A stretch of DNA of 64,000 nucleotides from sequence record PQ826431.1, one strand, 5' to 3'. This stretch comes from a phage. Below the pieces are notes generated by a model that was not told where the DNA came from, made no database searches, and was given only the letters and a program-made list of their open reading frames with translations. How positions within the stretch are numbered: position 1 is the first letter of the stretch; each line of letters begins with the position of its first letter. This document shows positions 5,808 through 22,184 of this stretch, in pieces. The translations under genes and the position numbers were made by a program.

Positions 5808-6068
5808 TTACTCCGCAATTTGAGCCATGAGATCACGCAGTTCGGTAAAACCGCCTACGTATGTTACCTCCCCGTTCACTTCAGACAGAATTTGTGGAAA
5901 TGTGCGTGGAGGAACTCCGGTAAGATCAACAACTGTTTTAGTCATTGATTCTAAATCATAGTCTTGATCAAGACTTAAATATTCAAACTGTTTATTGCGC
6001 ATGGTTAATAGTTGTTTTGACATTTCGCAAAATTGACAGTTAGGTTTACCAAAAATTACAAATTCCAT
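5808..6068 (-). CDS. glutaredoxin/NrdH-like redoxin
   Basis: 86 aa with 'CQFC' active-site-like motif near N-terminus ('FGKPNCQFCEMSKQLL') in the nucleotide-metabolism cluster. Confidence 0.55.
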   Translation of the reverse strand: MEFVIFGKPNCQFCEMSKQLLTMRNKQFEYLSLDQDYDLESMTKTVVDLTGVPPRTFPQILSEVNGEVTYVGGFTELRDLMAQIAE

Positions 6069-6910
6069 TACCTCTCCTTATTAAGTAATACTGCTAAAGA
6101 CTGTTCAATACCTTTATTTAAATCTGATTTTGTAAGATAGTGACTGGTTACTAGTTGTGACTTCACCGGACGTGCTGCTGGAGCATTATAGGTTGAAGCT
6201 GATACCGCCGATATCTTAACAGGTTCTGGCATCTGTGTCAAGATCTTTTCCGCAAACTCCGCCCAAGAAATAAAATGGCTTCCTGCAAAATGGTAAGTCT
6301 TAACAGACCTTGACCAACCTGTTTTTAATACTTCAAAAATAGCTTCTGCTAAATCTGGAGCATATGTTGGACAAGAGAACTGATCAGCAACAACAATAAA
6401 ATCACGTTGTCCATCATTATAGCGAGACAACATGGTTTTTAGAAAGTTATTTCCAAATTCGCTATATACCGAGGCTGTTCGAATAATATATGCATTTGGG
6501 TTAACTCCTCGCACCATTTTTTCACCAAGTTCTTTCGTATACCCATAATTGTTTATTGGGTTAGGTGTAGTATCTTCAAAAATAGGATGAGAATAATTAA
6601 AAATATAATCTGTAGAAATATGCACAAAATCAATTTTAAGTTTGCTGCACACTGCCGCAATATTTGCAGGTCCATACGCATTAACAGCCAAAGCAGTAGC
6701 AAAATCATGTTCTGCTTTATCTACAGCCGTATAAGCGGCGCAATTAATAACACCATCTACATAATCTTCAACAATAGCGTTTCGCACAGCTTCAAAATTT
6801 GTAATATCTACACGTTCTTTAGGATAAATTAAAGATACATTTGAAGGAACCACTTTACGTAAAGCTTGTCCCAGTTGTCCATTACCGCCCAATACCAGAT
6901 ATGTTAGCAT
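6068..6910 (-). CDS. rmlD: dTDP-4-dehydrorhamnose reductase (RmlD/RfbD-like)
   Basis: Rossmann 'LVLGGNGQLGQAL', and blocks 'CAAYTAVDKAEHD', 'HISTDYIF', 'NYGYTKELGEKMV', 'IIRTASVYS', 'ADQFSCPTYAPDLAEA' matching RmlD conserved regions. Confidence 0.8.
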   Translation of the reverse strand: MLTYLVLGGNGQLGQALRKVVPSNVSLIYPKERVDITNFEAVRNAIVEDYVDGVINCAAYTAVDKAEHDFATALAVNAYGPANIAAVCSKLKIDFVHISTDYIFNYSHPIFEDTTPNPINNYGYTKELGEKMVRGVNPNAYIIRTASVYSEFGNNFLKTMLSRYNDGQRDFIVVADQFSCPTYAPDLAEAIFEVLKTGWSRSVKTYHFAGSHFISWAEFAEKILTQMPEPVKISAVSASTYNAPAARPVKSQLVTSHYLTKSDLNKGIEQSLAVLLNKER

Positions 6911-7470
6911 ACACCCTCGCTACGTAACTGTTGAAAAGATTTAGCCATTGCATCTTTTGTTGATAGGATAGGTTTAAAACCTTCGTCAAAAATCATATCG
7001 AAGCCCCAATCGATCCCTATGTCAGGATCATCCCAACGTAAACTTTGTTCACTAGAAGGGTCGTATGGAGTTGTGCATTTGTATTCAAAGATCGCATCCA
7101 TACTCAAAACTATAAAACCATGTGCCAAACCAGGAGGAAGCCAAAACTGCGTATGGTGTCGTGCACGAAGAACAACACCGTCCCAAGCACCGTAAGTTGG
7201 ACTGTCTTTACGTAAGTCTACAGCGAAATCCAATACTTCCCCACTTACACAACGAACAAGCTTACCTTGCGGATTATTTGTTTGAAAGTGCATTCCTCGC
7301 AAAACACCGAAGTTTGATTTAGACATATTATCTTGAACGAAAGTTTGTTTACCAATAATATCTTCGTATTTTTGTTCATTGTATGTTTCTAAAAAGAAAC
7401 CACGATCATCTTTATAAACGTCTGGTTTGATAATTACCGCACCTTCAATTTTTGTTTTTTCTACTTTCAT
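6904..7470 (-). CDS. rmlC: dTDP-4-dehydrorhamnose 3,5-epimerase (RmlC/RfbC-like cupin)
   Basis: 'VLRGMHFQ...GKLVRCVSGEVLDFAVDLRKDSPTYGAWDGVVL...LPPGLAHGF' matches RmlC cupin signature; overlaps rmlD start by 7 nt. Confidence 0.8.
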   Translation of the reverse strand: MKVEKTKIEGAVIIKPDVYKDDRGFFLETYNEQKYEDIIGKQTFVQDNMSKSNFGVLRGMHFQTNNPQGKLVRCVSGEVLDFAVDLRKDSPTYGAWDGVVLRARHHTQFWLPPGLAHGFIVLSMDAIFEYKCTTPYDPSSEQSLRWDDPDIGIDWGFDMIFDEGFKPILSTKDAMAKSFQQLRSEGVC

Positions 7471-7981: not shown

Positions 7982-8095
7982 AGACTACTACTCGTCCCTC
8001 ACCATGACAATTCAGGCAAGGAAATGTTACCATAATTTCCACTTCCATCTGTCCAGTCCCACCGCACACAGGACAAAAAATAAGTTTTTCAGCCA

Positions 8096-8305
8096 TTATT
8101 CCTCCTTAATTATTTCAAACTTGGCAACACCATTTACAATAATATGACCACAAGACATAACTCCTAGCCAAGGATCGCCGTTTTTCTTCAGGCGTTTACC
8201 GAATACATCACAAAAACCATTCTTCATTTCGGAGGCTTCATAAGAAGCCCCTTTGTCAAAAACGTCTTTGAATGTGTCGATTATACCAACACATCTCAAA
8301 ATCAT
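8096..8305 (-). CDS. hypothetical protein (69 aa)
   Basis: Small ORF immediately upstream of nrdB (stop overlaps). Confidence 0.4.
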   Translation of the reverse strand: MILRCVGIIDTFKDVFDKGASYEASEMKNGFCDVFGKRLKKNGDPWLGVMSCGHIIVNGVAKFEIIKEE

Positions 8306-9390
8306 TAGAAGTCAAGCTCCTCATCATCAGAGAGATCTTTGTTAGCTGAATTCAATTTGTAGTTAGTTAACTGAATCTCTTGGGCTGCTGACTGAATCAA
8401 ATCAGGATTCAACCATTTTTCCATCCAAGCTAAAGGACTATGTTTAGGTGCTTTAAACTTAGCTTTCATTTTCAATCGACGATAAATAGGAGCAGCATTG
8501 AAATAAACCCACTGTTTAGACAATTCGGCGTTAAGACCTACAATAAAACGACCTTCACTAAACAGGTAGTCACACCACTGTTCCTCTTGTTCAACAACAG
8601 TGTCGAGGATCAAAGTCAACTCTTCAATATTGTCTTCGTAAATTTTACGCCAAATTGGGTCATGCATCAATGCATCAATTACAGCATAATCCATCTTAAC
8701 ATGCAAGATTTCATCTAGCATAATTTTCTGGATCAGTTTACAAGCCCCAACAAACAGTTGTTGTTCTGCCATAGCAAAAGTAGCAGAGAAGGAAGATATA
8801 AACTGAATACCTTCTAATCCAATCAGGGCTACCATCCCTTTAAGAATCAGCAGTCGAAGTTCATCGTTAGCTTCAATCAATCCTAGAGCATACTTATGAC
8901 CAGCTTCTTCCAACTGACCCATGATATCAGCAATGATACCCATACGATTGAAAATTTTATCATTAATCATAATCTGATTGATGACTTCAATTGGATCTGG
9001 AGTACATTGACGGATTATTTCAGAATACGTTAACGCATGGAGAACTTCCATTTCACTCTGCTTCATCATCATAGCACAGGCTTCATTGTTACTCAAGAAT
9101 GGAGAGAACAAAGTGATGATTGATTTTGCAAGAGAATCATTTTCCCATTGGAACGATAAGTTTTTAATCATAACATCATAGTTGTTTTTAGAACAAGCTA
9201 CGAAATCTTTACGTGTCTGATCCAGATTAACTTCGTTTTCATCCCAATCTTGTGCTTTTTGAAGTTTGTAGAGTTTGTGCATTTCTGGATAAGTTACGTT
9301 AACAGAATCAAAGATCCCTAATTGCTCCCCCAAAAATACTGGATATTTTCCTGTTTTGTAAACTTCATTGTGTAAATTAATTGCTGCCAT
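8305..9390 (-). CDS. nrdB: ribonucleotide reductase class Ia small subunit (NrdB)
   Basis: Ferritin-like di-iron blocks ('SEMEVLHALTYSEIIRQ', 'LIGLEGIQFISSFSATFA', 'DEILHVKMD'); acidic C-terminal tail typical of R2; preceded by hairpin plus GAGGAG RBS. Confidence 0.9.
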   Translation of the reverse strand: MAAINLHNEVYKTGKYPVFLGEQLGIFDSVNVTYPEMHKLYKLQKAQDWDENEVNLDQTRKDFVACSKNNYDVMIKNLSFQWENDSLAKSIITLFSPFLSNNEACAMMMKQSEMEVLHALTYSEIIRQCTPDPIEVINQIMINDKIFNRMGIIADIMGQLEEAGHKYALGLIEANDELRLLILKGMVALIGLEGIQFISSFSATFAMAEQQLFVGACKLIQKIMLDEILHVKMDYAVIDALMHDPIWRKIYEDNIEELTLILDTVVEQEEQWCDYLFSEGRFIVGLNAELSKQWVYFNAAPIYRRLKMKAKFKAPKHSPLAWMEKWLNPDLIQSAAQEIQLTNYKLNSANKDLSDDEELDF

Positions 9391-9433
9391 TTAAAATTCT
9401 CCTCAATAAAAAGGGGCCGAAGCCCCTTTATAT

Positions 9434-10087
9434 TTAGCCTCGAAATACTGTTTTTGTTTCCGCCAGGTGCCAATAGAAATCCGCCTTGTTTACAAGAGTG
9501 TTGTACACCTCTGGATAAAAATGTTCTTCCTCTTTGTAACGATCCGCTGTTTCCCTGATTGACTTAGCTTTATCTTTTAGCCAAGCGAAGTGTGCCTCTT
9601 CCTCTGTAGCGAAGTAACCTAAATGCTTTCCTTTGTGTCCAGATGATTTAGAAGAAATCTTACCATCGGATTTTCTTACAGTTACCCCTAAAAGGGATTT
9701 TCTTTCCGTCCTTTTTGAGTAACTTAACAGAGTATTCACATATGCTGGAACAAACCTACAATACGCTGGACAATAGACCGTATTACCTTCAAGTACAAGG
9801 TCTTTGTCCAGAACAAAGTTTGCTACAAAGTTTTCTTGATACCACATGTCGAAGTTTGAAAACATAAACCACTCGTCACAAACCGTCACACCTGTATACC
9901 CAGGTCTTGCTTGTTCCATTTTATAGGCTCTTTCGAACATGTTTTTCCAAGCTTTGTAAGACGGGTCTGGCTTCCCGTCTACAAATAATCGTCTTTCTAC
10001 ATCAACTACTAAGGGGATTTCTCCCCTTTCGGTAGTAACGGTCACTGCACGTTTACCTTTGAGCATTTGACCTCCTACATGCTGCAA
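9434..10087 (-). CDS. free-standing HNH-family homing endonuclease-like protein with AP2-like C-terminal DNA-binding region
   Basis: Located between nrdB and nrdA; shares 'CDEW..F.NF' block and C-terminal 'KGKHLGYFATEEEAHFAWLK' (AP2-like) with the paralog at 20446..21075. Confidence 0.55.
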   Translation of the reverse strand: MQHVGGQMLKGKRAVTVTTERGEIPLVVDVERRLFVDGKPDPSYKAWKNMFERAYKMEQARPGYTGVTVCDEWFMFSNFDMWYQENFVANFVLDKDLVLEGNTVYCPAYCRFVPAYVNTLLSYSKRTERKSLLGVTVRKSDGKISSKSSGHKGKHLGYFATEEEAHFAWLKDKAKSIRETADRYKEEEHFYPEVYNTLVNKADFYWHLAETKTVFRG

Positions 10088-12321
10088 CCCTCACATCCAG
10101 ACTCTTTCAGGTTATCTTCTTGTGCTAAAGAATCTGCTGATTTTGTTCTACTATTAAGGTAATACAATGACTTACCACCCAGTCTAGCAAAGTTCAAAAT
10201 AAATTTCATCTCTTCTTTAACTGATAAACGTCCCCCTACCAATTTAGAATAATCTAACCAAGAATCACAAGAAATTCCTTGGTCCGTAAACTTGGTAAAG
10301 ATACCATACATTTCTGCAAGATCTTTAGCCGGAGTATCCCAGGCAGATTGGTAGAACATTTTCAGTTTTTCATAGTCTGGAACAATAAATAATACACTGC
10401 CTTTCTGACTTTGTTTATACATAATGGTATCACGAACAGGATACAGAGAGTTAGTAGTATTGCTTACCAAACTGCTGGACTCATTAGGTGCAATAGCAGC
10501 CAAGACACTGTTACGGATACCACCTTGTTCAATGATTTCAGCACGTAAGCCTTCCCAGTCCATTTTAAGATCAAAATTACCGATACTATCTACTGTTTTA
10601 GCATAAGTGTCAATTGGTAGCCAACCTTGAGGCCATTTGGTCTTATCGATCCACTCCGCATTACCTTTTTCCTTAGCCAGACGCAGAGAGGCTTTTGCCA
10701 ACCAAAAGTAATGACGTTCTGCAAGTTCATGCATTAATTTTTTAGCATAAGCATCTGAATAATTTACAAAATTACTTGCCAAGTAATGCGCTAAGTTTGT
10801 AATGCCTACACCAATAGATCTACGTGCTTTAGCAGTTATTTCGTTATGTTTAAATGGATAATCCATTGTTTCAATAACGTTGTCAATTGTCAATACAGTG
10901 TAGTATGCAACATCTTCATATTCTTCAGGTAATACACGACCAGCAACAATAGAAGATAAGAAACATAAAGCCAATTCTTGATCTTCTGTATTCTCACCAG
11001 TAAAGAGATCCGGCATACTGTGGAAAGCTTTAGTTGGTAAGAAGATCTCTTGACACAGGTTTGATTGATACACCGTATCCAGGAAAGGTGTATGGTTGTT
11101 AACGTTGTCAGCAAAGAACATGTAAATACGTCCTGTTTCTGCACGTTGAACAATAATCTCTGTCAGAAGATCACGAGCCTTAACAAATTTTTTCTTAATG
11201 CGACGACGGCTTACTTTGTCATAAACTGCATCAAACTCTTCTTCACTTTTATACAAAGCTTCATAAAGTTCAGGAGCATCATCACAACTAACTAACATCC
11301 AATCTTCGTTTTTTGCTGCTCGACGCAAGAACGAACGGTTAACAACAATAGAATAATCCAGTTTGTCTACTCGTTTATCTATAGGTGTTGTTGGATTCTT
11401 CAGTCGAATCAGATCGTCGAAGTCTGGTTCAAGTATGGTAAAGGTAACTGTAGCACTACCTCCACGGCTTGCTTGCTTCGAAGCTCCAACACTATCTTCC
11501 ATCCATTTCAGATACGGAAGAAGACCACCATGAATAATACGATTATTCTTAACACCTTGACCTGTGGCACGAGTTTGAAGATTAACACCAATACCTGCGT
11601 TATTCAACGTATACTCATGAGCTAAGTAATTAGCAATGGCTAAAGATTCTGCCGTATCGTCTGCACGGAATAAACAACAAGACGCACTTCCTTTGATTGG
11701 AGTTCGTAGAGTTGTCAGATACGGCGATGGCAGATTAATCTTAAGATCGCTAACATAAGTATAAAGTTTTTTAATATCTTCTATACGGCGTTCTTTTGGT
11801 TGGATCTCCATAACCTTCATTGCGATACCAATGAAAAGAAACTGTGGAGACTCATGCACCACATCGTTTACTGCATCTCGAATAAGATATTTATCTACCA
11901 TCTGACGTAAAACAGAATAACCATAAGTTAGATTTTTATTATGCTTTACAATCTTACCGATTTCTTTGATCTCTTCATCAGTATAATCCATTTTAGCCCA
12001 ATGTCCACGTTCTACCATATCATGATAAAAGGTATTCAGTGAAGGGATACTGTGGTATCCCCCATGAGCCTGTTTGTAAATCATACCCAGAAGAAGTCTT
12101 CCTGCCATATCACTGTAAGCTTGTGTTTTCTTGTCAATACACGCTGCAATCATTGCTTTATGCAGATCACGTGTAGACACACCGTCATAACACCGCTTCA
12201 CAGCTTCTAATTCAATTTCAGACCAGTTTAGTTTACCTGCTGCAAATTCAGACCACTTGCGAAGTTTTTCTGGATTAAACTCCTCTGTCTTACCGTTAGA
12301 TTTAGTTACAAAACGAATCAA
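10075..12321 (-). CDS. nrdA: ribonucleotide reductase class Ia large subunit (NrdA) with N-terminal ATP cone
   Basis: 748 aa; blocks 'SASCCLF', 'ETGRIYMFFADNVNNHTPF', 'SNLCQEI', 'LALCFLSS', 'GIRNSVLAAIAPNESSS', 'KSLYYLNSRT' and C-terminal 'ESGCEGCSM' parallel E. coli NrdA. Confidence 0.95.
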   Translation of the reverse strand: MIRFVTKSNGKTEEFNPEKLRKWSEFAAGKLNWSEIELEAVKRCYDGVSTRDLHKAMIAACIDKKTQAYSDMAGRLLLGMIYKQAHGGYHSIPSLNTFYHDMVERGHWAKMDYTDEEIKEIGKIVKHNKNLTYGYSVLRQMVDKYLIRDAVNDVVHESPQFLFIGIAMKVMEIQPKERRIEDIKKLYTYVSDLKINLPSPYLTTLRTPIKGSASCCLFRADDTAESLAIANYLAHEYTLNNAGIGVNLQTRATGQGVKNNRIIHGGLLPYLKWMEDSVGASKQASRGGSATVTFTILEPDFDDLIRLKNPTTPIDKRVDKLDYSIVVNRSFLRRAAKNEDWMLVSCDDAPELYEALYKSEEEFDAVYDKVSRRRIKKKFVKARDLLTEIIVQRAETGRIYMFFADNVNNHTPFLDTVYQSNLCQEIFLPTKAFHSMPDLFTGENTEDQELALCFLSSIVAGRVLPEEYEDVAYYTVLTIDNVIETMDYPFKHNEITAKARRSIGVGITNLAHYLASNFVNYSDAYAKKLMHELAERHYFWLAKASLRLAKEKGNAEWIDKTKWPQGWLPIDTYAKTVDSIGNFDLKMDWEGLRAEIIEQGGIRNSVLAAIAPNESSSLVSNTTNSLYPVRDTIMYKQSQKGSVLFIVPDYEKLKMFYQSAWDTPAKDLAEMYGIFTKFTDQGISCDSWLDYSKLVGGRLSVKEEMKFILNFARLGGKSLYYLNSRTKSADSLAQEDNLKESGCEGCSM

Positions 12322-12337
12322 CTTCTCCTCCCTATTA

Positions 12338-12592
12338 TTAATGCATATTCAAAACATCTACATCATAACCGAACTTCATTTCATTAAAAAGTCCATTAGC
12401 ATATAGAAAACCTTCAAAATGAGTTATGTCATCAAACCCTTTTGCTTTTGCTCGACGGTCTGCTTCTTGTCTTTTAGGAGATAAACGTTTTGAAGTGTCT
12501 AGAATTACAGTTACATTACAACCAACAGTTTCATCAAAATAGACTTCGATTTCACAGCCTTCATATTTATTATCAGTCATTGTCCCTCTCAT
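12338..12592 (-). CDS. hypothetical protein (84 aa)
   Basis: ORF directly downstream of nrdA. Confidence 0.45.
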   Translation of the reverse strand: MRGTMTDNKYEGCEIEVYFDETVGCNVTVILDTSKRLSPKRQEADRRAKAKGFDDITHFEGFLYANGLFNEMKFGYDVDVLNMH

Positions 12593-19507: not shown

Positions 19508-20233
19508 TTACTTGTTAATAATACCTGCGATATTAGGTTTAATGAAACCTGACCACTTCATGATCTTACCTTTATCATCAAAGAACACATACACTTTCTG
19601 TTTTTCATTATAAACGGCATGAACACCAGTGTATGCCCCTTCTGGACGATTGGCATTTCGTTCTTCAATTGAAGCGCATTCTTGTGCAATGGCTGAATCG
19701 ATATCTGAAGTTTTCCAAGTTTTCAGCAACTGTTGTTTAGTTGGATACTTGGAATCATTACTTTTCAATACCTCTTTAATAACTTTCTTTTCTGGATATT
19801 TTGAACGGATTAGAGTGTCACGAGACATACGCATGATACCAGCAGCCATTAGTGCCATTTGAACTGGCTCTGTAAATGTTTGTTCCAAAGCATCAAAATC
19901 AGTATACACAGTTGGAGTAAAAACATCGCCTACAGCATAGTCCAAGAAATTCATCGTATGTTCTTCACCAAAGAACATGTAAGTAAGATAACTGGATACT
20001 ACAAAAATATCCGCTGCTGCATCCAAGAGTTCTACATGATCGTTTACTTTCGCGGCTGTTTCATACTCTTTAAGCTCTTCACGAACGAACCCGATTTGGG
20101 ACATAAATAGCTCTTGAGTGAATTCAGGTTGTTCACCACCTCGTGCTTTGGCATTCCAATCAATTACGTGCTTTGCTGCATTTTTGAAAAATTCAGTATC
20201 GAATTTAATATCTTTAAAAAAATTCTCGATCAT
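19508..20233 (-). CDS. hypothetical protein, possibly MazG-like all-alpha NTP pyrophosphohydrolase
   Basis: 'REELKEYETAAKVNDHVELLDAAADIF' resembles the EExxE...ExxD metal-binding pattern; weak. Confidence 0.3.
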   Translation of the reverse strand: MIENFFKDIKFDTEFFKNAAKHVIDWNAKARGGEQPEFTQELFMSQIGFVREELKEYETAAKVNDHVELLDAAADIFVVSSYLTYMFFGEEHTMNFLDYAVGDVFTPTVYTDFDALEQTFTEPVQMALMAAGIMRMSRDTLIRSKYPEKKVIKEVLKSNDSKYPTKQQLLKTWKTSDIDSAIAQECASIEERNANRPEGAYTGVHAVYNEKQKVYVFFDDKGKIMKWSGFIKPNIAGIINK

Positions 20234-20242
20234 TGTTTCTCC

Positions 20243-20434
20243 TTATTTAAAATATTGTTTTGTAAATTCCACCAGATATACAACAACTGCACCCATTTGT
20301 GTACCTGCTGCACCGTAGACAATAATTAGACTAACCTTCTGCCACCATGTTGGGTGAGGGAAAGTTGATGCGCCAATTATACCACAAGCAACAATAGAAA
20401 GGAACACAAGAACCAGAATAACTTCAATGCTCAC
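20243..20434 (-). CDS. small membrane protein (two predicted TM helices), holin-like candidate
   Basis: 63 aa, hydrophobic stretches 'VILVLVFLSIVACGIIGA' and 'VSLIIVYGAAGTQMGAVVVYLV'; function not established. Confidence 0.35.
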   Translation of the reverse strand: MSIEVILVLVFLSIVACGIIGASTFPHPTWWQKVSLIIVYGAAGTQMGAVVVYLVEFTKQYFK

Positions 20435-20445
20435 TGCAACCTCCT

Positions 20446-21075
20446 TTATGTTTTAATCTTGCCAAAATACAATACTTCAGCTTCCTGTCTTGCTGATATA
20501 GCATCTTCAATATCAGTAAATGCTCCAAGACGGATATCTTTTCCTTGATAGGATATACGAGCAATCCATCTTTTTTCTTTCTCGCTCCACACAACACCTG
20601 TTTTACCAGAAGTGTTGTTTTTCTGTTTTCGTGTATTGTATGACTGGACAGACCTTGTAGCCCAGCGACAATTTTCTTTACTGTAATCTTTTTCCGAGTC
20701 TATTCTGTCAAGAGATAAACCTTTAGGTCTATCTCCCATATCCTCAAAAAATGCAGAGAATGAATTTCTCCAAGCATCGCAGACCTTAATACCACGACCA
20801 CCGTAGTATTCAAAGTGAGTATTGTTTTTGTTATAGCATCTCCCTAACATAGCTTCCCACGATTTGTATGCTCCTGTTTGTGTTGTTTGCGGTCTACACT
20901 TCGAACAATAAGAACTTTTATTCTTCCTAAGTGTTGCCATAGTTACCGTGCAAATATTACCACAATCACAAGAACAAGTAAAACGTCTTTTGCCATGCTT
21001 GTCCCTTTCAATCTCTTCTAAGACAGTATAACAACCACATTTCTTACCTACAAGGTCTACTCTCTTGGCTCCCAT
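20446..21075 (-). CDS. HNH homing endonuclease with N-terminal zinc finger and C-terminal AP2-like domain
   Basis: 'LSLDRIDSEKDYSKENCRWATRSVQSYN' (HNH_3-type motif), 'YYGGRGIKVCDAWRNSF', C-terminal 'GVVWSEKEKRWIARISYQGKDIRLGAFTDIEDAISARQEAE' (AP2-like). Confidence 0.7.
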   Translation of the reverse strand: MGAKRVDLVGKKCGCYTVLEEIERDKHGKRRFTCSCDCGNICTVTMATLRKNKSSYCSKCRPQTTQTGAYKSWEAMLGRCYNKNNTHFEYYGGRGIKVCDAWRNSFSAFFEDMGDRPKGLSLDRIDSEKDYSKENCRWATRSVQSYNTRKQKNNTSGKTGVVWSEKEKRWIARISYQGKDIRLGAFTDIEDAISARQEAEVLYFGKIKT

Positions 21076-22184
21076 GTTCCCTCCACCATTTCCCGTAAAC
21101 GGACACCTGTTGGTTTAGTAGGTATTCCACCATCAGAAAACTCTTCATACTCAATCTCAACAAATTTACCAATTAACATTTCGGCATTCTCTGCTTTACG
21201 ATAATTGATAGTCTCATGAGCATCTTTACGCATTAAGAATTCGACTACTTTACCATTTTCCATCTCACCTGTCAACACTCCATCGCCATTTTTATCACTT
21301 TTTGAATTTGTTACTTTAACTTCAAGGGTGTGGCGAGGCTTACGTTTAATAACGTCATAAGAACGTTTATCAAATTCGTAAACTCCGTGAGCATTACGAT
21401 ATACTACACCTTCAGCTTTCTCAAGTAAAGCTTTTTCATAGAAAGCATCAAACTGTTCTTGGTTTTCAATATACTCTGTATGAACTACGCAAATAAGCTC
21501 GTCAAGACCATAATCTTCAACTACTGCCTTAAGAGCAGTAAGAACATCAACACGTTTTTCAAACGGTAGATCTGGAACTGGAATATCGTATACGTAATAG
21601 TTCAGCAAAGGTGTATTTGCATTATGCTTCTTCCAGGCACTGTTAATTTGTTGTAGACTAAGGACACCTAACCCAGCAAACACTTCACCATCAAGAGGAT
21701 GACCAACAACTTCACTAATAAAGTTTGGAATACCTTTCCAATGAGGTGGCAGGTTGTACACTTCCCCAGCTTTTGATAAACACTCTCCTTTCATGTTAAT
21801 CATAGAACGTAACCCGTTCAGTTTGTATTGTGCATAACCAGGGAACACAACCCTTTCAGGATAATCTTTATAATCCTGGCATTTCATTGGTGTGGAAGGA
21901 ACATGGTTTTCAGCTTCTTCTTTTGTTTTATAATAGCCATTCTTTAACTGTTTTGTCCATTTGGCAAAAGCTTCAAGTTCAGCTTGTTCTTCTGGTGTTG
22001 TTTCATTGGAACGACCAATGTTTTTTGCTTCTGCTGTATAAGATTTTTCTGTGATTTTTCCACCTACCCTTCCATGAGCTACAGTAACAACTGCACCATC
22101 TGTATACACTGTCCACTGTTTAAGTTTTCCTTTTGAATCTTTACCATACAGCGTTTGATTTGTTTGTTGCATTAGTCCTCCCAC
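21057..22184 (-). CDS. nucleotidyltransferase-superfamily ligase (DNA ligase-like)
   Basis: Motif I 'KLNGLR' (KxDG-type with N), motif III 'DGEVF', motif IV 'EGVVYR', motif V 'VIKRK'. Confidence 0.6.
   Translation of the reverse strand: MGGLMQQTNQTLYGKDSKGKLKQWTVYTDGAVVTVAHGRVGGKITEKSYTAEAKNIGRSNETTPEEQAELEAFAKWTKQLKNGYYKTKEEAENHVPSTPMKCQDYKDYPERVVFPGYAQYKLNGLRSMINMKGECLSKAGEVYNLPPHWKGIPNFISEVVGHPLDGEVFAGLGVLSLQQINSAWKKHNANTPLLNYYVYDIPVPDLPFEKRVDVLTALKAVVEDYGLDELICVVHTEYIENQEQFDAFYEKALLEKAEGVVYRNAHGVYEFDKRSYDVIKRKPRHTLEVKVTNSKSDKNGDGVLTGEMENGKVVEFLMRKDAHETINYRKAENAEMLIGKFVEIEYEEFSDGGIPTKPTGVRLREMVEGTWEPRE

Follow-up and report, generated by a model that had tools for sequence, protein, structure and literature searches.

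A putative His-less homing endonuclease gene of the IPA-HNH class between nrdA and nrdB of a phAPEC8-like coliphage

Ribonucleotide reductase (RNR) genes are a well-known niche of homing endonuclease genes (HEGs). Here we describe an open reading frame (ORF) located between the RNR genes nrdA and nrdB in a 64,000-nt stretch of phage DNA (sequence record PQ826431.1, hereafter the window). The window is part of the genome of a Phapecoctavirus, a phAPEC8-like coliphage of the subfamily Stephanstirmvirinae, and its region 8000-12500 is 98.5% identical to that of Escherichia phage EF1-1 and 95-99.6% identical to that of dozens of phapecoctaviruses. On the minus strand, the order of genes is nrdA, the ORF and nrdB. 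An initial annotation had proposed a free-standing HEG-like gene of the HNH-AP2 type at this position, and the polymorphism of the site among relatives, the presence of an AP2 domain and the homology to Gp59 of phage ICP1 all bear this out. As such, the ORF is probably a functional, free-standing HEG of the AP2-associated, His-less IPA-HNH class. The features of the locus, together with a second gene of the same superfamily located elsewhere in the window, are as follows:

8305..9390, minus strand: nrdB, class Ia RNR small subunit, with its ribosome-binding site (RBS) at 9399-9404
9405..9426, minus strand: backbone terminator-like hairpin with U-tract (from folding, relatives and the annotation of phage Schickermooser)
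9428..10113, no strand assigned: variable cassette of 686 bp relative to HEG-less relatives (from the junction alignment with Mt1B1_P17 and mismatch maps)
9434..10066, minus strand: HEG, 210 aa plus stop codon, putative IPA-HNH class (from the ORF, PHROG 953, ICP1 Gp59, EF1-1 and the ratio of nonsynonymous to synonymous substitution rates, dN/dS)
9437..9550, minus strand: predicted C-terminal helical hairpin, residues 173-210 (AlphaFold2 (AF2) helices 155-178 and 185-203)
9551..9694, minus strand: predicted AP2 DNA-binding domain, residues ~125-172 (family profile against the PDB, AF2)
9701..9985, minus strand: putative divergent, His-less beta-beta-alpha-metal-like (His-Me finger) domain, residues 28-122
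9986..10066, minus strand: predicted N-terminal beta-hairpin, residues 1-27 (AF2 strands 6-12 and 15-21, with a predicted local distance difference test score (pLDDT) of 54-82)
10071..10075, minus strand: RBS of the HEG, GGAGG (from the sequence and the phi92 annotation)
10075..10113, minus strand: allele-specific 3' end of nrdA, the 12 codons of NLKESGCEGCSM plus stop codon, a candidate target-site or immunity segment
10075..12321, minus strand: nrdA, class Ia RNR large subunit
20446..21075, minus strand: second, distantly related putative HEG of the same superfamily (family hidden Markov model (HMM), PHROG 374)

The mechanically called frame (9434..10087, minus strand) is free of interruptions and yields the 217 aa of the initial annotation when read from a TTG, but a better start shortens the protein to 210 aa. 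This start is almost certainly the ATG at 10064-10066, because of the placement of the RBS, the annotation of EF1-1 and the alignment of the alleles. The RBS GGAGG (10071-10075) overlaps the stop codon TAG of nrdA (10075-10077), giving TAGGAGG, and the same arrangement (AGGAGG) is found in the annotation of phi92. The EF1-1 protein, which is 100% identical to that of the window, is annotated from the equivalent of this ATG, and M[LK]KGKR forms the common alignment start of all alleles. The region has no excess of promoter-like sites over shuffled sequence (15, with 13.6 expected), and this, together with the overlap of the RBS with the end of nrdA, makes the HEG look promoterless and coupled to nrdA. 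Its base composition gives no sign of foreign origin, with a GC content of 40.8% compared to 38.7% for the window.

A hairpin at 9413-9426, just before the RBS of nrdB, had also been part of the initial annotation and is indeed present. On the sense strand it reads GGGGC-UUCG-GCCCC and is followed by UUUUUAUU and then by the nrdB RBS GAGGAG (9399-9404). With its U-tract (9405-9412) the hairpin resembles an intrinsic terminator, folding at -17.9 kcal/mol in a 61-nt context, and the record of phage Schickermooser annotates the same hairpin as a terminator. A scan for consensus terminators did not list the hairpin at 9413-9426, probably because an A-U extension of the stem uses up the T-tract. 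Since relatives that lack the ORF have it as well, the hairpin is an element of the backbone and not of the insert; an arrival together with the insert is ruled out by its presence at empty sites. That the AP2 domain docks on this G4/C4 hairpin would be unsupported speculation, and the second gene at 20446..21075 has no such hairpin alongside.

Comparison with related genomes shows that the ORF is not a constant companion of its neighbours, as most close relatives lack it at a site that is precisely conserved. In most relatives, the nrdA-nrdB spacer is 44 bp long with the same hairpin inside. In carriers, the ORF is placed after the nrdA stop codon and directly upstream of this hairpin. Positions 9428-10113 of the window (686 bp) thereby stand in for ~40 bp of the empty genomes, including the last 12-13 codons of nrdA. 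In the alignment with Mt1B1_P17 the flanks are 99-100% identical on either side of the 686 bp versus ~40 bp, and over the matched region empty sites measure 305 bp compared to 951 bp. Within the phage collection, 72 records match the junction and 128 the wider nrdA-nrdB region, a full-length gene at the site being found in ~22 records and a remnant in one phage, ZCKP1 (two database records); GenBank/RefSeq duplicates inflate the counts of junction, nrdA-nrdB and carrier records. Elsewhere in this collection, the allele of the window was found only in EF1-1. Several of these relatives (EF1-1, phi92 gp074, nieznany and others) already have the gene labelled as 'HNH endonuclease' in GenBank. The junction was extracted from 21 loci, which define the site states and the nrdA tails discussed below, and among which the following states occur:

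Empty site with 44-bp spacer: Mt1B1_P17, Schickermooser, anhysbys, vB_EcoM_01
HEG only: the window, EF1-1, iGC_PHA_EC001, nieznany, VEcB, phi92, VivaForever
HEG and 112-aa ORF: ESCO5, vB_Ec-G1, ECML-183-2
112-135-aa ORF only: phAPEC8, dw-ec, DIJ07P1, ESCO25, ESCO13
HEG with an internal deletion of ~500 bp: ZCKP1
HEG nearly all deleted, with 7 codons left: DE16

The last two states show the gene in decay. The remnant in ZCKP1 consists of the first ~10 codons and the last ~130 nt of the HEG, and the 68-bp spacer of DE16 holds the RBS and the first 7 codons of the HEG, joined to the hairpin at a TAAAG microhomology. Both phages have kept the nrdA tail allele that is linked to the HEG. The 112-135-aa ORF is a second, independent polymorphic insert (phrog_17458, E 4e-62), which in many relatives lies between the hairpin and nrdB and overlaps the start of the latter. 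It would fall at ~9391-9404 and is absent from the window. This ORF, to which no function is assigned, has two divergent alleles, MSTLIVLPGV... and METLIVLPGA..., and is found both in HEG carriers and in HEG-less phages. A further observation on the records concerns their host names: those of 'Campylobacter phage B15/C3', 'Acinetobacter phage vB_AbaM_ABPW7' and 'Serratia phage KKP_3264' match this coliphage lineage, B15 and ABPW7 with 99% identity and C3 and KKP_3264 with ~79%. These host labels may be wrong, or the phages may be unexpectedly broadly distributed.

The polymorphism extends into the coding sequence of nrdA. At the 21 loci, the C-terminal tail of the encoded protein (10075-10113 in the window) occurs as three protein alleles, A, B and C, each of which keeps the CxxC motif of the reductant-shuttle region. 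Tail A (...SDGGCEACKM) is found at 7 loci that carry neither the HEG nor a remnant of it, with the HEG-less ESCO25 and ESCO13 carrying tail C instead. Tail B (...SEDEGCSACKM) is present in all of the HEG carriers of the ESCO5/iGC/phi92 type (8/8), and in the decayed ZCKP1 and DE16 as well. Tail C (...NLKESGCEGCSM) is shared by the window, EF1-1, ESCO25 and ESCO13, the window version differing from that of the latter two by 9 changes in 39 nt for the same protein: 8 synonymous changes in 12 codons, and the stop codon (TAG compared to TGA). Across these loci the nrdA tail alleles track the occupancy of the site by the HEG, which is a correlation only.

At least four allele lineages, 71-84% identical to each other at the nucleotide level, are found at the site. 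Within Phapecoctavirus, this range for the HEG compares to 96-99% for the flanks. Between genera, the HEGs of iGC_PHA_EC001 (Phapecoctavirus) and VEcB (Justusliebigvirus) are 96.8% identical at the nucleotide level, versus 77.8% and 79.5% for their flanks. By these identities, the phylogeny of the HEG is incongruent with that of its flanks, and the gene has moved between phage backbones and genera; its mobility between phages is well supported. What differs between occupied and empty sites is a discrete cassette with a sharp boundary (9428-10113), consisting of the nrdA tail, the RBS and the 210-aa ORF. Of the 686 nt of this cassette, 3 distinguish the window from EF1-1, as against 15 in the next ~150 nt of nrdA (10132-10285), where EF1-1 is ESCO5-like and the window Mt1B1_P17-like. 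Furthermore, the HEG itself is a mosaic: its last ~60 codons (9434-9610, ~180 nt) are ~97% identical at the nucleotide level to the allele of the iGC_PHA_EC001 type, compared to ~65-70% for the remainder, which encodes the nuclease-like and AP2 parts. A comparable internal switch occurs in the HEG of vB_Ec-G1. These patterns indicate recombination inside the HEG, such that the half of the protein that determines specificity varies together with the linked nrdA tail. Invasion, co-conversion of a flank, a variant target in carriers, decay and loss are, taken together, the classical marks of a free-standing HEG.

The protein itself is intact. Values for dN/dS between alleles are 0.05-0.15, with synonymous sites near saturation, and each of the family-invariant residues (D87, K88, D89, Y98, C103 and N111) is kept in the window protein. 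In its N-terminal linker, the window allele is shorter than the other alleles by two small deletions (4 and 5 aa). The suggestion in the initial annotation that this copy may be degenerate is contradicted by the dN/dS values, which place the protein under strong purifying selection, and by the retention of the invariant residues.

With regard to family, the protein matches PHROG 953 (E 2.5e-57) and PHROG 374 (E 5e-41), both of which are named 'HNH endonuclease'. A tblastn search returned relatives in 1,409 phage records, among which 810 of Vibrio and 115 of Rheinheimera (barba-type) phages, and the match in ICP1 is annotated as 'previously called GP59'. In BLASTP, the ORF product and ICP1 Gp59 are 32% identical over 164 aa (E 9e-25), with a common LDKD...Y...C...N core. 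Gp59, Gp115-116 and Gp209 of ICP1 are the founding IPA-HNH proteins (Barth, Dunham and Seed, 2023; PMC10448857), and it was against Gp59 that we established homology to this class. Like the ORF product, Gp59 has no match to Pfam HNH_3 at E<=1. A profile search of 1.84 billion representatives yielded 47,168 cluster representatives at E<=1e-3, which makes this a very large family.

The AF2 model of the protein (pLDDT 86.6) opens with the N-terminal beta-hairpin, of which residues 1-27 are conserved only among alleles of the nrdA-nrdB locus. The predicted nuclease-like part consists of helices 35-48 and 64-79, strand 84-87, a long loop, strand 104-107 and helix 108-114. It is followed by a three-stranded sheet (128-152), helix 155-178 and a last helix (185-203). 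The family profile finds AP2 domains in the PDB (WRI1 with E 2e-6, TEM1 with 0.004, and ERF096 and AtERF1 more weakly), and two homologs match Pfam AP2 just below threshold, which the window protein itself does not reach. The sheet-plus-helix part is an AP2 domain located C-terminal to the nuclease-like domain. The AP2-like region of the initial annotation is real, but it is central (~125-172) instead of C-terminal, and a helical extension follows it.

A canonical HNH motif is absent, as had been noted for this copy at the outset, but it is absent from the whole family. Instead, Asp, Tyr and Asn never vary among the 285 sequences of two subfamilies. By sequence and predicted secondary structure, D87 and N111 are at the positions expected for a metal site, Y98 lies in the omega-loop, and C103 is likewise invariant. 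While fold searches with the full-length model were uninformative, a search with the N-terminal domain returned PacI, a His-Me finger nuclease, as the nearest structure. PacI has no catalytic His; a Tyr of its omega-loop is used instead, and the metal is held by Asp and Asn (PMC5714182, PMC4081073). Because the invariant D87, N111 and omega-loop Y98 resemble this set, we infer a PacI-like active site in the IPA-HNH domain, and the Asp/Lys/Tyr/Asn set suggests a PacI-like, His-independent mechanism. In such a site Asp87 and Asn111 would probably hold the metal, with Tyr98 replacing the His and Lys88 assisting. A bridge to canonical HNH_3 by way of the relatives of the second protein failed: in precomputed annotations, a Pfam HNH domain is present in none of its 120 listed best relatives, and in none of 18 relatives of the ORF product.

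Several observations must be set against the reading of this gene as a functional HEG. The position of the catalytic His, at the end of strand beta-1, is taken by Lys88, within L-D87-K88-D89, and DKD is found in 163 of 165 relatives. Scans of Pfam and NCBIfam, including the search for HNH_3 and AP2 that the initial annotation had proposed, return nothing at E<=1 for either this protein or that encoded at 20446..21075, and thus detect no nuclease domain; with these profiles silent for both proteins, the nuclease assignment draws on remote evidence only. Sequence searches of the PDB (phmmer and profile) reach AP2 domains and chance matches, and no HNH structure. No curated profile covers the domain, and these genes carry the name 'HNH endonuclease' by inference. 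In the founding study, the only paper found to use the name IPA-HNH, nuclease activity is deduced and not demonstrated for any member (PMC10448857). As for the nrdA tails, their correlation with occupancy could reflect linkage by descent instead of immunity, and tail C, in recoded form, is also present without the HEG in ESCO25 and ESCO13.

In an alternative explanation, the gene is a domesticated, non-catalytic descendant of a HEG, i.e. an AP2 DNA-binding protein that regulates, for example, the nrd operon or genes of competitors. DNA binding would then be all that the His-Me-like domain does, and the gene would owe its spread to ordinary recombination or to a benefit for the phage. Lys88 where the catalytic His is expected and the lack of a Pfam HNH match both fit with this, as does the view that some His-Me finger groups with neither His nor Tyr are inactive (PMC5714182). 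There is precedent as well, since DNA-binding domains of HEGs are known to act as repressors in the ICP1/PLE system (PMC10448857), and the annotators of phi92 named the ortholog a 'potential transcription factor'. Strong purifying selection would fit a useful host function as well. However, Asp, Tyr and Asn are invariant in the 285 sequences precisely where a PacI-type metal site needs them, and the gene is dispensable, as most relatives are without it and it decays and gets deleted. Moreover, it has crossed between genera at an identical site, along with a recoded piece of an essential neighbouring gene, which is a signature of break-driven gene conversion and not of a regulator. We therefore consider domestication unlikely, though it is the strongest of the alternatives.

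Less likely still is that the gene is a passive passenger, either mobilised in trans by another nuclease of these phages or carried into a permissive stretch between genes by frequent recombination of co-infecting phages. Such mobilisation in trans, of a defunct element by the HEG next to it, has been documented for mobE and I-TevIII (PMC2790892), these genomes carry other HEG-like genes, and the spacer also takes up the unrelated phrog_17458 ORF, suggesting that the site is permissive or hot. Yet the low dN/dS at saturated synonymous divergence amounts to long-term selection on the protein, and at least four old allele lineages have been maintained at this one site. Furthermore, it is the divergent N-terminal/AP2 part that co-varies with the nrdA tail allele, the C-terminal part being common to alleles. 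Finally, that the gene is a decaying pseudogene heading for loss, as could be read from the missing H-N-H motif, the two linker deletions and the truly decayed copies in ZCKP1 and DE16, is barely credible and already largely refuted by the intact frame, the good RBS, the identical protein in EF1-1, the retention of all invariant residues, the confident AF2 model and the fact that the His is missing family-wide.

A functional, free-standing HEG hence accounts best for the locus, and its cycle can be pictured as follows. The HEG would be transcribed on the nrdA message and translated by coupling. Upon co-infection with a HEG-less phage, the AP2 domain and accessory parts may bind the region of the empty nrdA 3' end and terminator, where the N-terminal domain would nick or cut. 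Repair off the HEG-carrying genome would then copy the gene in, along with the linked nrdA tail, and the recoded tail would protect the carrier genome from the enzyme that it encodes. A more specific proposal, that IPA-HNH proteins are PacI-like His-Me fingers that cut with Y98, assisted by the invariant Lys/Arg, and that the allele-specific, mostly synonymous recoding of the nrdA tail is a self-immunity co-evolving with the nuclease/AP2 half, is tentative, and we would not be surprised to see it fail. If it were true, IPA-HNH, with its tens of thousands of members in phages and bacteria, would form a class of homing endonucleases set apart by its catalysis, and several mutually incompatible pairs of HEG and target would be competing for one site.

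In itself, the gene is an unexceptional case of a known phenomenon, already annotated in relatives and belonging to a family named in 2023. What is new here is the natural history at a single locus, with empty, occupied, decayed and deleted states, transfer across genera and linked nrdA tails, and also the conserved set of residues that appears to resemble the His-independent site of PacI. As such, a spacer of 44 bp in coliphages used for therapy and biocontrol displays the full life cycle of a HEG, and the three nrdA tail alleles provide ready substrates for biochemistry on the large IPA-HNH family.

The second gene (20446..21075), named a paralog in the initial annotation, is a genuine relative, with E 3e-22 against the family HMM, 24% identity (E 3e-5) in BLASTP and a match to PHROG 374 with E 1e-72. 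The clearer HNH motif ascribed to it did not materialise: its protein has a Cys-rich N-terminus, an LDRID...Y...NCRW core and an AP2 domain, and Arg takes the position of the catalytic His, both here and in 112 of its 120 closest relatives. It is located between a DNA ligase (21057-22184) and a nucleotide pyrophosphohydrolase-like gene (19508-20233), and its presence is polymorphic as well, with 6 of 121 matching records covering at least 80% of the region and most phapecoctaviruses being without it. The best of the matches listed are those of Justusliebigvirus phages (VEcB and muut, 89%). A small hydrophobic ORF of ~60 aa (GTG at 20433) follows this gene. Elsewhere on the minus strand, an RmlD-like reductase (6068-6910) and an RmlC-like epimerase (6904-7470) have the look of a dTDP-sugar pathway, judging from their translations only, and for the neighbouring gene in phi92 the annotation gives nucleotide-sugar epimerase or dTDP-glucose dehydratase.

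How does this gene relate to systems described before? Its closest counterpart is the IPA-HNH family (PMC10448857), with which it shares the homology to Gp59, an N-terminal domain divergent from Pfam HNH_3 with an AP2 domain downstream, and a free-standing position beside an essential gene; 18% of that family is located near RNR genes (PMC10448857). Compared to Gp59, the protein has a shorter N-terminus and an additional C-terminal helical hairpin. The host lineage also appears to differ from those of the founding study, being coliphages of the Stephanstirmvirinae, and no mention of phi92, phAPEC8 or ESCO5 was found in its supplementary tables.

In position, the gene is analogous to mobE of phage T4, as the initial annotation had recognised. 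The latter lies between nrdA and nrdB as well and has no promoter of its own, being transcribed together with nrdA, and its product nicks the nrdB of the HEG-less phage T2 (PMC2790892). The niche, the apparent lack of a promoter, an associated terminator hairpin and co-inherited flanking RNR sequence are thus common to both. However, MobE has a canonical HNH_3 domain and a zinc finger (PMC10448857), whereas the protein described here has no Pfam HNH_3 match, catalytic His or C-terminal Cys cluster, and has an AP2 domain and helices instead. No relation to MobE emerged from the sequence searches that were run, and it is by the published description of MobE (PMC10448857) that the two are set apart. 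Moreover, whereas MobE nicks nrdB, the polymorphism at the present locus points to the 3' end of nrdA.

With PacI (His-Me finger group 20; PDB 3m7k/3ldy) the protein would share, by sequence position, the lack of a catalytic His and the Tyr/Asp/Asn set. PacI is a homodimeric type II restriction enzyme with two Cys4 zinc sites, in contrast to a mobile-element protein with only two conserved Cys (C63 and C103) and an AP2 domain. Lastly, the HNH-AP2 homing endonucleases known from cyanobacteria, ciliates and phages (Magnani et al. 2004, in PMC10448857) and the HNH_3 enzymes of the I-HmuI type carry a canonical HNH_3 motif with His where the present family has D-K-D and that of the second protein D-R-x-D, yet they display the same modularity of a ββα-metal nuclease combined with AP2.

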